A stretch of 62,997 nt of DNA, counting the filler, from Reclinomonas americana ATCC 50394 (Eukaryota), in the NCBI GenBank assembly GCA_048213135.1. It is 12 parts of 6 records of this genome, joined end to end, with 100 filler letters (N's around TTAATTAATTAA, not from the genome) between each part and the next. Parts side by side here need not be neighbours in the genome. Positions count along the whole stretch, not along the records: positions 5,609 to 18,430 come from PS015683.1; 11 more parts are not named here. The stretch is one strand, 5' to 3'. The position numbers and the translations under genes are program-made. Below are positions 12,701-15,700 of the stretch, piece by piece (the first letter of the stretch is position 1; every line of letters starts with the position of its first letter). Below the pieces are notes generated by a model, which ran no database searches, had not been told where the DNA came from, and was given only the letters and a program-made list of their open reading frames with translations.

Positions 12701-15700
12701 GTTCCAATCCTCTTCTCTTCTCGTCTGTTCCCATCTAATCTTTTCCGTCTCTTCTCCCTTCTCCCCTCCTCCTCTTCTATCTCCCTTCTCCCCTCCTCTC
12801 CTCCTCCTCTCCAATCCAATCCACTTCTCTTCTCGTCTGTTCCCATCATCTTATCTCCTCCATCTCTTCTCCCTCCTTCTCCTGTCTCCTCTTCGATCCC
12901 CTGTTTCTCTCTTCTCCTATTCCTCTCCGTTCCAATCCTCTTCTCTTGGCATCTGTTCCCATCTTTTCTTCTCCGTCTCTTCTCCCTTCTCCTTCTCCTT
13001 CTCCTGTCTCCTGTCTCTCTCCTCTCCTCTTCCTCTCCGTTCCAATATTCTTCTCCTCTCGTCTGCTCCCATCTTTCCTCCTCCCTTCTCTCCTCTTCCT
13101 CTCCCTTCCCCCTTCCCCCTTTCCCTTTTGTCCTTCCCCCTTTCCCTTATCCTTCTCCTTTTTCAGCGCTTCGGCGACGACTGCGAACCACACTTTCTCC
13201 GCGCCCTGTACACACTCAACACATCGCTCGCCGGCGACATGGTGCGACACGGCTTCGTCTCGCTCCAGAAATACGTTGCGTCTCGTCGCGTCGCGTGTGT
13301 GCCTCCCACCATCACTGTTTCACCCCCTTGCCCTCTTCTCCTTGCATAGAGCTCCGCTCAGTTGCACCAACTGGAACGTGGATCGCCGGCGGCCTTGCGT
13401 CAGGCGCGCGCAGCCAACGACATCTTGGAGTCGTATTTCGCCATTGACGATGTGCAGAACGATGTGGTCATTCGTGCGGTTGGTGACGACGCTTGCACAC
13501 GGCCTTTCCCATTTATCTCACCACCCATGTCCCGCGTGCAGGGCATGCTCAAGTGGTCCACCCATCAAAACACCGTCTCCAGTGTCTCCTTTGTGCACAA
13601 ATCGTTCCTGGAGTACTCCGCCGCCGGCAACTGGCTCGACACGATGGTGGCGGTCGCCAATGCAGGAACGCCCATTGAGGTAAGGCAGTATCACGCTCAC
13701 TCCGAGTGAAGGAGGCAGTGCACCGACTGCCCTCCCTCCCATCGCAGGATCGTCTCGACCTGCTGGCCGGGTCTCTGGTCGGCAATGTGCAGCTCACCAC
13801 GACCAACGATGTTGCGTAACCCTTCACCCCCCTCCCCCACCGCCACCTCTCACTCACCTCTCCCATTCATGCAGGGTCTCGCCTCCATCCTCTCGTTTGC
13901 CGCCGACATTGTGCGCGTCAACAATCGCCTCCCCTCGGCCTGCCTCCACGCCATTCGCCTCTCACGCGATTTCCCCGACAATCCGCACGTGGCCATCGCG
14001 GCCGCCAGCGCCGCCTCGGTCCTGTGCGCCGCCCAGTTTTCCCTCAGCGGGCGCGATTTGCGCGGAGTGAGGCTGCGAGGTGCCGATTTGCGCGATGCGC
14101 TGTTGCATCGCACCGACTTGCGCGACGCCGATCTGCGCGAGTGCAACCTGCGCGGCGCCTTTTGCTGCGATGCCGACTTGCGCGGCTGCAATTTGGTTGA
14201 CGCCCAACTGCCGCGGCCACCCATTGAGGCACACGATGACGAGGTGCGAGTGGTGCTGGTGACGCGTGACGGCAGCAAGATCGTGTCGGGAGGCCTCGAC
14301 GGCAAGGTTCGCGTGTGGTCGTTTGCCGACGGCAGCCTGTTGCACTCGTTCGACGCCGACAGCGAGAGTGTCGGCGCTGCTGTGCTCACCCCCGACGACG
14401 AAAGCGTGGTGGTCGGAGGCACCGAGGGCCACCTGCGGCAGTATTCACTGCGCACCGGCCAGCTGCTGCGTGACATGGACGCAAATGGTGGGCGCGACAT
14501 CAGTGCCCTGGTGATCACGCCCGACGGTCAGCAAGTGCTCTGCGACGGGCGCTACGGCAACACCATCACGGTGTGGTCACTGGCCACTGGCATCCAGGTT
14601 CGCTCGTGGAACCGGTCCACCGAGGGCGACTATTCGGTGTCGGGCTCCGTGTGCATGACGATGACGCCCGACGGCGACTCGGTGATCGTGGCCAGCGGCG
14701 AGTCCCTCACGCAGTGGTCGGTGCACACGGGCGAGAAGATTCGCGCGTTTTTCATGGGGCATGTCGCCACGGCGCTGGCCGTGACCCCCAACGGCGCCGC
14801 TCTGATTGCGGGCGACGAGGACGGCCAGCTGCTGCAGTGGAGCCTCGTCACCGGGGAGCCGATTGGTGGCGCGCAGCTGCACGCGGAGGCGCTGACGGCG
14901 CTGGCCGTGAGCCACGATGGGGAGTCGGTGTTTAGCGGTGGAGAGGATCGTGCCGTGCGCCAGGTGCTGCTGCTCACGAGCCAACTCGGCAGCAGCATCG
15001 ACGCACACAGCGAGGGCGTGCGCTCCCTGGCACTCACCGCCGACGGCAAGTACGTGGTGTCGGGAGGTGCCGATCGCAAGATCTTTGTGTCGACGATTGA
15101 CGCCACACAAAAGACGCGCCGAACGGAGCGTCACGAAGGCACTGTGACGGGTCTGGCCGTGTCGTTCCAGTTCTCCGCGCTGCTAACGTGCGGAGCGGAC
15201 GGCACACTGCGCAAGTGGGCGCTGGGGTCGCGCTTCGAGATCGACCGCGCCTTGGCGCATCCGGGTCCGAGCAGCGAGCACAACGGCAGTGGTGTGTGGT
15301 CGCTGACGCTGCTGCCCGACGGAAAGCACGCGGCCACGGGCGGCGGCGATGGCACGGTGCGCATCTGGCCCGTCTTCGCCCCCGGCCCGATGCGTACTCT
15401 GCAGGGCCACCGCCCCTGGATACCCGTGTGCGACGTTGCCGCCACGCCCGATGGCAAGTTGCTGGTGAGTGCCTCACACGACGGCACAGTGCGTATTTGG
15501 TCGGTGGAAACGGGCGAGCAGGTGCGTGTATGGGAGGCCGCCGGCAAGAAGGAGCGTTTGCAGATGGAGCACAGCTACGGCGCCACTCCCGTGTGGTGTG
15601 TGGCGGTGACGAGTGACTCGGTGCGTGCTGTGACCGGGCACGAGGATCACGTGATCCGCGTGTGGAATTTGGTGTCGGGAGTCATGGAACGCGAGATCGA

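Follow-up and report, generated by a model that had tools for sequence, protein, structure and literature searches.

Within the window, i.e. the whole stretch of 62,997 nucleotides (nt) from Reclinomonas americana ATCC 50394 (assembly GCA_048213135.1) that was analysed here, a considerable minority of short introns appears to begin with a second type of 5′ splice site (donor). Its members, designated class II donors, have the form GTT[GT]CG[TC], mostly GTTGCGT, and follow exons that end in A, C or T (non-G, written H). A preliminary description of this DNA had proposed 17 heptamers of this or a closely similar kind as donors. All 17 are located where they were proposed (on the minus strand the coordinate is that of the G of the GT) and the base at −1 is A, C or T at 17 of 17. 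The class II heptamer sites are with high confidence real donors, and the donor class looks real and major.

Class II introns in the window

For six of the 17 donors, all on the plus strand, there is strong support from acceptor, branch motif, reading frame and coding potential, and all six were called by a gene finder that scores nothing of the donor but its GT (described below; D is its score). The intron GAT|GTTGCGTAA...CAG|G at 13811..13874 (+, 64 nt, phase 0) represents the best pairing of donor and acceptor by a wide margin, and forbidding its donor costs 9.5 nats. The GT at +5 fits no acceptor within 15 nt. The intron ATT|GTTGCGTGA...CTGAC...CAG|A at 52799..52860 (+, 62 nt, phase 0) was called with D=5.3. 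Stop codons close behind these two donors had been part of the preliminary description, and at both of them reading through leads to a stop two codons on. Homologues of the RING region (44–47% identity) start aligning at 52888 or 52894 only, therefore the junction at 52799 lies outside their coverage.

The intron CAA|GTTTCGT...CAG|G at 18984..19041 (+, 58 nt, phase 2, D=5.3) reached a pairing score of 34.8 versus 9.4 for the next best combination, and AAT|GTTGCGT...CTCAC...CAG|T at 42145..42203 (+, 59 nt, phase 1, D=3.1) one of 28.9 versus 14.1. For TGC|GTTGCGT at 44076..44144 (+, 69 nt or alternatively 72, phase 1, D=3.2) this score is 34.1; at 42145 as well as at 44076 the frame excludes the GT at +5. 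For GCA|GTTGCGT...CAG|C at 42519..42571 (+, 53 nt, phase 1, D=3.1) a junction in RCC1 sequence had been assumed earlier. The next exon (42574-42720) corresponds precisely to a single RCC1 repeat (Pfam positions 1-50 of 50), and the sole in-frame alternative donor is located 12 nt downstream. When the exon between 42145 and 42519 served as query in an exhaustive HMMER search, only generic RCC1 repeats were returned (18 matches, best E=7e-8).

The donor-blind gene finder moreover called four members of the class that had not been proposed before. These are CTC|GTTTCGT at 16390..16455 (+, 66 nt, phase 2) with the signature of branch motif plus YAG, CAT|GTTTCGT at 23521..23586 (−, 66 nt, phase 0, D=4.9), CGA|GTTTCGC at 56627..56685 (−, 59 nt, phase 1, D=2.6) and TTT|GTTGCGT...CTCAC...CAG|A at 58801..58862 (−, 62 nt, phase 0, D=1.8). 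The first three are included in the best-supported set defined below. For the fourth the pairing score is 16.6 versus 0.3, and its GT at +5 could be combined with an AG located 2 nt farther downstream. Together with the six donors above, these four pair with an in-phase YAG located 53–69 nt downstream, by which a coding-like open frame is restored.

Nine further proposed donors are plausible but ambiguous. For TAC|GTTGCGT...TAG|A, a probable class II intron at 13275..13349 (+, 75 nt, phase 0), the ambiguity arises because the gene finder took 13280-13351 (GT at +5, GAG acceptor, same frame) instead of this best pairing. Similarly, ACC|GTTGCGT...CTCAC...CAG|A at 35176..35237 (−, 62 nt) is a probable class II intron with the branch plus CAG signature, and here the gene finder favoured the GT at +5 with a GAG acceptor (35138-35232) by 5.2 nats (D=5.2). 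The donor TGC|GTTGCGT at 50561..50567 (+) terminates a strongly coding exon and has an uncertain acceptor; the gene finder used its +5 GT with an intron of 365 nt (D=1.8). AAT|GTTACGC at 26372..26440 (−, 69 nt) is a possible class II intron with the best pairing, and the gene finder chose an in-frame GTGAAT that lies 6 nt upstream (D=0.5). CCA|GTTGCGT at 37113..37119 (−) was called with a 336-nt intron (D=4.7), with an uncertain acceptor and a poorly defined downstream exon.

Two of the nine terminate corresponding exons of two aspartyl-protease paralogs. TGC|GTTGCGT at 4126..4132 (−, paralog 2) was called with D=1.4 and has several possible acceptors, and CAT|GTTGCGT at 241..247 (−, paralog 1) has its acceptor beyond the contig end. 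The paralogs keep GTTGCGT at the same exon end, with an indel of 3 nt before the heptamer and a loss of similarity after it; a protein search with the aspartyl-protease exon returned no homologues. GGA|GTTGCGT at 59990..59996 (−) follows the residues WLNEG in an M1 peptidase gene (Pfam Peptidase_M1 match), with the contig end about 175 nt downstream. This junction had been regarded as forced by the protein motif. It is not, because the GT at +5 (donor GTGCGC) would give WLNEGVA, which is also M1-peptidase-like, and the Pfam alignment spans both residues. CAT|GTTTCGC...CAG|G at 61827..61918 (−, 92 nt, phase 2) is a possible class II intron that joins HRVA-M-SAMTRTR, and the gene finder picked another donor. 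The assignment of its gene to the OYE family is based on a sequence motif and found no confirmation, since the two short flanking exons gave no Pfam or PDB match.

The two remaining proposed donors are weak. GAT|GTTGCGC at 30048..30054 (+) was called with a 336-nt intron (D=1.1) and poor flanking coding scores, and the frame stays open for 70 codons. AAT|GTTGAGT at 40645..40651 (+, D=0.8) has its acceptor in a GA repeat and a downstream exon of 8 codons.

Where the short introns are pyrimidine-rich, the donors 247, 4132, 40645, 50561 and 59996 are followed by G/A-rich tracts (GGGGA-like), and the introns of all five are either long or incompletely defined. A 14-mer, GTTGCGTTTCTCTG, is common to the donor region 37106-37119 (−) and to an intergenic GTTGCGT copy at 59398-59411 (+), and this may be due to chance.

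Enrichment at donors called without a donor model

The gene finder is a self-trained semi-Markov model for both strands that combines 3-periodic coding and intron Markov models with an acceptor matrix and a length prior. Every intron has to have GT and AG termini, and beyond the GT the donor receives no score. In the run over the whole window it called 182 donors among about 7100 GT sites, and GTTGCGT was the top-enriched of all 7-mers at called donors, with 10 of its 16 copies called versus 0.41 expected (p=2e-11). The values for the hexamers were 11/43 for GTTGCG (expected 1.10, p=2e-8), 5/15 for GTTTCG (expected 0.38, p=4.8e-5) and 13/125 for GTGAGT (expected 3.20, p=2.4e-5).

When each contig was run separately 183 donors were called. 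They included 8 of the 16 copies of GTTGCGT (p=1.2e-8), 1/16 for GTTGCGC, 0/11 for GTTGCG[AG] and 1/12 for GTTGAGT (p=0.27), the one called copy of the latter being 40645. For GTT[GT]CG[TC] as a whole 13 of 43 sites were called versus 1.11 expected (p=1.5e-10). Ten of the 17 proposed donors were picked exactly.

The gene finder is home-made and over-calls, yielding 184 introns, many with D below 1. A best-supported set comprises 57 of the 184 blind introns; its members do not exceed 150 nt, are flanked on either side by coding-like sequence and have a good acceptor. A donor-trained round of expectation maximization was discarded after drifting into microsatellites of the (GT)n, (GA)n and (GTGA)n types.

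Independently of any gene model, GT sites were screened for CT[ACG]AC followed by YAG with the intron end 45–110 nt downstream. Six of the 16 GTTGCGT sites carry this arrangement compared with 669 of 6948 GT sites overall (9.6%; p=0.003), and among GTTGAGT sites it was found in 0 of 12.

As a mere word GTTGCGT is hardly conspicuous. Its 16 copies stand against 9–12 expected from Markov models of orders 1–4, a mild excess only, and plain over-representation was rejected as evidence since the count is near expectation. Its position is what distinguishes it: non-G precedes all 16 copies and 13 of them are found at ends of coding exons. Eight are called donors, three fall within the final five bases of called exons for which the model had set the donor at the next GT, five bases further down, two abut contig ends after well-supported exons, and the remaining three are found in predicted intergenic DNA.

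Exon ends and type of intron

Class II donors account for 9 of the 57 best-supported and for 13 of the 183 blind-called introns, and they are confined to exons ending in non-G. The proposal of a discrete and frequent second donor class is borne out by these figures. In the best-supported set G occupies −1 in 0 of 9 class II donors versus 34 of 48 other donors (Fisher p=9e-5), and a hand count over 21 class II sites gave T in 10, C in 6, A in 5 and G in 0 cases. Donors after AG are almost free of intronic consensus (e.g., AAG|GTCCTC, CAG|GTTCCG or AAG|GTCTGT). Non-G exon ends carry either GTGAGT or the class II heptamer; three GTGAGT donors after non-G are present in the M1 peptidase gene, the spliced product of which contains GAMEN and HELAH, hallmarks of the M1 family.

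In all other respects class II introns resemble their neighbours. A CTNAY branch motif was found in 9 of 9 class II versus 33 of 48 other introns of the best-supported set, and those of class II read CTCAC (5), CTGAC (2), CTGAT (1) and CTCAT (1). Among all 57 introns CTCAC occurs 20 times, CTGAC 10 times and CTAAC twice, with the branch A at a median distance of 18 nt from the 3′ end; the introns 12029-12091, 42145-42203 and 47598-47674 illustrate the CTCAC/CTGAC motif. A C before the branch A is unusual with regard to the CTRAY rule. The median length is 62 nt for class II (the nine introns of the best-supported set plus three more sites) versus 67 nt for the other 48. Mean local alignment scores between intron interiors are 5.77 within class II (66 pairs) and 5.66 among the others (1128 pairs).

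A family derived from introners or transposons was rejected, as class II interiors resemble one another no more closely than those of the remaining introns do. A U12-type nature was rejected for the donor, which reads GTT[GT]CG[TC] and not [AG]TATCCTT, as well as for the branch, which shows CTSAC as in other introns and nothing like TTCCTTRAC. Because of the shared branch motif, the similar length and the lack of interior likeness, class II introns are ordinary GT-AG introns (with the GT and AG termini imposed by the construction of the gene finder), neither U12-like nor copies of mobile elements.

Recognition of the heptamer

In GTTGCGT and GTTTCGT the consensus G and U are displaced by one position after GUU, with G at +6 and T at +7, and positions +1 to +7 of GTTGCGT match positions −1 to +6 of G|GTGCGT at all but one base. 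The T at +7 is needed, as can be seen from the calls for GTTGCGT (8/16), GTTGCGC (1/16) and GTTGCG[AG] (0/11). The T at +7 and the match to G|GTGCGT fit an offset register, either shifted or with a bulged U. We infer that the class II donors are genuine and read out of register by the ordinary machinery of the major spliceosome, and assign this reading a probability of about one half.

According to it H|GTT[GT]CG[TC] would mark the 5′ splice sites of short GT-AG introns of the major spliceosome and constitute a discrete donor class for exons ending in non-G. Exons ending in G (usually AG) would need almost no intronic consensus at their donors, and those ending in A, C or T would require an information-rich intron side, supplied by GTGAGT or by the class II heptamer. 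The intron part would be read one position out of register so that G+6 and U+7 replace the usual G+5 and U+6, with U+3 either bulged out or taking the place of U+2. Help might come from proteins of the U1 small nuclear ribonucleoprotein or from later contacts with U6.

Several points weigh against this reading. Every junction was deduced from sequence, the sample is a single 63-kb window, and the blind model preferred the GT at +5 at 13275, 35237 and 50561. RNAduplex with the canonical U1 5′ end AUACUUACCUG, which may differ from that of this organism and was modelled free of pseudouridines and proteins, gave 17 of 19 sites predicted energies between +0.7 and −2.1 kcal/mol, compared with −5.5 and −2.7 kcal/mol for the model donors H|GUGAGU and H|GUUGAGU, respectively. 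GTTGAGT should pair better with U1 in either offset register, yet at most one of its 12 copies is a donor, and at +5 almost nothing but C is seen in spite of the U opposite to it in U1. Neither register is matched on the exon side, where CA|, predicted by the shifted one, occurs only twice among the 21 sites.

The initial characterization of these donors as the local consensus with an extra T oversimplifies them: the displacement of G and T to +6 and +7 is evident, but GTTGAGT is almost completely unused (1/12), T is needed at +7 and the predicted U1 pairing is about zero. The simple version with a bulged T is likewise weakened by the rare use of GTTGCGC and GTTGCG[AG]. The poor U1 pairing and the disuse of GTTGAGT therefore keep alive the alternative of a variant small nuclear RNA (snRNA) or of another mode of recognition.

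This alternative assumes a dedicated partner that reads the heptamer. Candidates are a variant U1-like snRNA whose ACGCAAC-like 5′ end is complementary to GUUGCGU, a changed contact of U6 or U5, and a protein that recognizes the sequence. In its favour, seven fixed positions hold more information than any other donor type of the window, the predicted pairing with canonical U1 is near zero, and C over A at +5 as well as T at +7 are strongly preferred. The word is apparently also avoided outside donors, with 3 non-donor copies versus about 9–12 expected for the whole word. A precedent for joint change of an snRNA and its motif comes from Physarum, where the U12 snRNA and the branch motif changed together (10.1101/2020.10.12.336362). 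On the other hand, no RNA or protein of this kind was seen in the window; the H|GTGAGT donors of the M1 peptidase gene demonstrate the activity of a canonical-type U1 as well, therefore canonical U1 and a dedicated partner would need to coexist; and the 5′ end of U1 is to our knowledge nearly invariant across eukaryotes. A dedicated partner is thus a tentative explanation and clearly the less probable one compared with offset reading. Slightly more doubtful still is the reading that the major spliceosome uses two donor dialects, namely AG|GU or GUGAGU and a fixed GUUKCGU read by a co-evolved partner, and the same modest weight is given to the joint assumption that this partner is an additional U1-like snRNA having a 5′ end of the ACGCAAC type or consists in changed U6/U5 contacts.

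The other explanations are far less probable. Introns of a divergent minor (U12-like) spliceosome could be suspected, since a long fixed donor free of exon-side consensus is a hallmark of U12-type donors, the nearest named relative of one window gene is amoebozoan, and a large minor class is known from Physarum (10.1101/2020.10.12.336362). The donor is unlike [AG]TATCCTT, however, and branch motif, branch-to-acceptor distance and length are as in other introns, which renders this origin very unlikely. Marginally less credence is given to the assumption that the second GT is the actual donor (GTTGC|GTNNNN) and GTTGC an exonic motif. It is backed by the choices of the blind model at 13275, 35237 and 50561, by the acceptable WLNEGVA product at 59996 and by frame compatibility at 13275, 58862, 4132 and 40645. 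It fails at 11 of the 15 sites with a GT at +6/+7 and a defined acceptor, where no frame-keeping AG is found within 15 nt; moreover, there is no consensus in the bases after the second GT, GTTTCGC and GTTACGC members lack it completely, and the exons would have to terminate in five invariant bases with a final C. Just as improbable is an artefact in which a motif of rare codons was pushed out of exons by the coding model, the class being an illusion of self-training. Such an effect would agree with the unremarkable word count, with the over-calling and with the runaway of the donor-trained round. It does not account for the positive branch plus YAG test, which is free of gene models, for the phases that match unique CAG acceptors 53–75 nt away, for the fit of the RCC1 repeat boundary at 42519 and of the aspartyl-protease paralogs, nor for the fact that no other 7-mer comes near the enrichment of GTTGCGT.

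Comparison with known donor classes

Shifted-register 5′ splice sites in mammals were reportedly described by Roca and Krainer in 2009. The donors presented here share with mammalian shifted or bulged sites the U at +3 after GU, the displacement of the G/U pair from +5/+6 to +6/+7 and the occurrence in U2-type GT-AG introns. They differ from them in the preference for C where A would pair and in a pairing with canonical U1 of about 0 kcal/mol. For human 5′ splice sites validated non-canonical registers amount to 1.5% (3119 of 201,541) according to Tan et al. 2016 (PMC4856993). Unlike those scattered human sites, a single fixed heptamer is used here in roughly 7–16% of called introns.

In animals and plants exon-side (“left-handed”, U5) and intron-side (“right-handed”, U6) donor classes have been described (PMC11842720, PMC11732430). 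The situation in the window is similar insofar as G(−1) donors show little intronic consensus and non-G donors have all information in the intron. Unlike the right-handed class as described there, the intron side is split here into GTGAGT and the offset GTTKCGT, and the latter is not part of the left- and right-handed classes described there.

In Physarum polycephalum 20,899 U12-type introns are listed beside 154,299 U2-type introns (about 12%) in 10.1101/2020.10.12.336362. Like these, class II is a second class with a long fixed donor, no exon consensus and a share of about a tenth of introns; it differs by a donor unrelated to [AG]TATCCTT and by branch motif and spacing that equal those of other introns here. 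A literature search found no paper linking GTTGCGT to splicing, and none of the 15 papers listed out of 61 that contain GUUGCGU deals with splice sites. Human variant U1 snRNAs with altered 5′ ends exist, and variants of this kind would account for a fixed motif that is not complementary to canonical U1. No variant U1 is known to serve a major share of an organism's introns.

The pairing of the U1 5′ end with donors of the GURAGU type is among the most conserved in eukaryotic gene expression. If the present findings are true, a tenth or more of the introns begin with a heptamer that U1 pairing leaves unexplained, and they do so strictly where −1 is not G. They would offer a natural system for studying the choice of the cleavage site under offset or missing U1 complementarity, and also for testing whether snRNAs and splice motifs co-evolve. 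With two donor dialects, class II would represent the U2-type counterpart of the co-evolution of U12 snRNA and branch site in Physarum. Training on GTRNGT-type donors would lead gene finders to place junctions wrongly in many genes of this organism, e.g., at the GT five bases downstream.

Genes of the window and minor observations

The window has a G+C content of about 57% and contains 3831 N. Eleven N blocks of 100 nt (each 44 N + TTAATTAATTAA + 44 N) represent linkers between contigs with stops in all frames, located at 5509-5608, 18431-18530, 22317-22416, 27894-27993, 35743-35842, 44504-44603, 51378-51477, 55559-55658, 57137-57236, 59721-59820 and 61540-61639. Gene models continue across them and the contig order was therefore read as meaningful. 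Contig ends often consist of (GA)n, (CA)n or (GTGA)n microsatellites.

A Pfam run on all 368 open reading frames of at least 90 amino acids in the window named few genes, i.e. two aspartyl proteases, a WD40 protein, a TRAF zinc finger, RCC1 repeats, a RING finger and an exon of an M1 peptidase. In protein searches the closest relative showed 47% identity. A metagenome scan yielded 80 loci at 25–50% identity and no close relative among them; their motif density (0.17 per kb) is uninformative without gene models. Since the nearest relatives are only 44–47% identical, few junctions are covered by homology. An Rfam scan of the window gave no family at gathering scores and no snRNA gene, and at E up to 1 just low-complexity noise of microRNA and small nucleolar RNA families.

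The region 41598-55477 (+) seems to be taken up by a single giant gene with many exons, or possibly by two to three adjacent genes. The encoded sequence includes a zinc-finger-like portion rich in Cys, RCC1-like repeats and a RING finger with a Cys-rich C-terminus, and five of the proposed donors are located inside the region. Its best relatives, with 44–47% identity, include a transcript of Clastostelium recurvatum (Amoebozoa) and JGI proteins named MYCBP2.

At 23326-23394 (−) the sequence GTATCCTC is one base short of the U12-type donor GTATCCTT and could replace, without a change of frame, a GTGAGT donor located 15 nt upstream; this intron showed no branch motif of the U12 kind. The aspartyl-protease paralogs are arranged in tandem at 204-2090 (−) and 4002-6709 (−). 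A long exon at 13875-16103 (+) encodes pentapeptide repeats followed by WD40 repeats; a query with this protein returned bacterial-type proteins only, and the best matches bear bacterial names including cyanobacteria, yet spliceosomal introns lie upstream. At 17700-18900 (+) a predicted protein contains a long Pro/Lys-rich tandem repeat with PKPKPSKPQPPKDGDK-like units.

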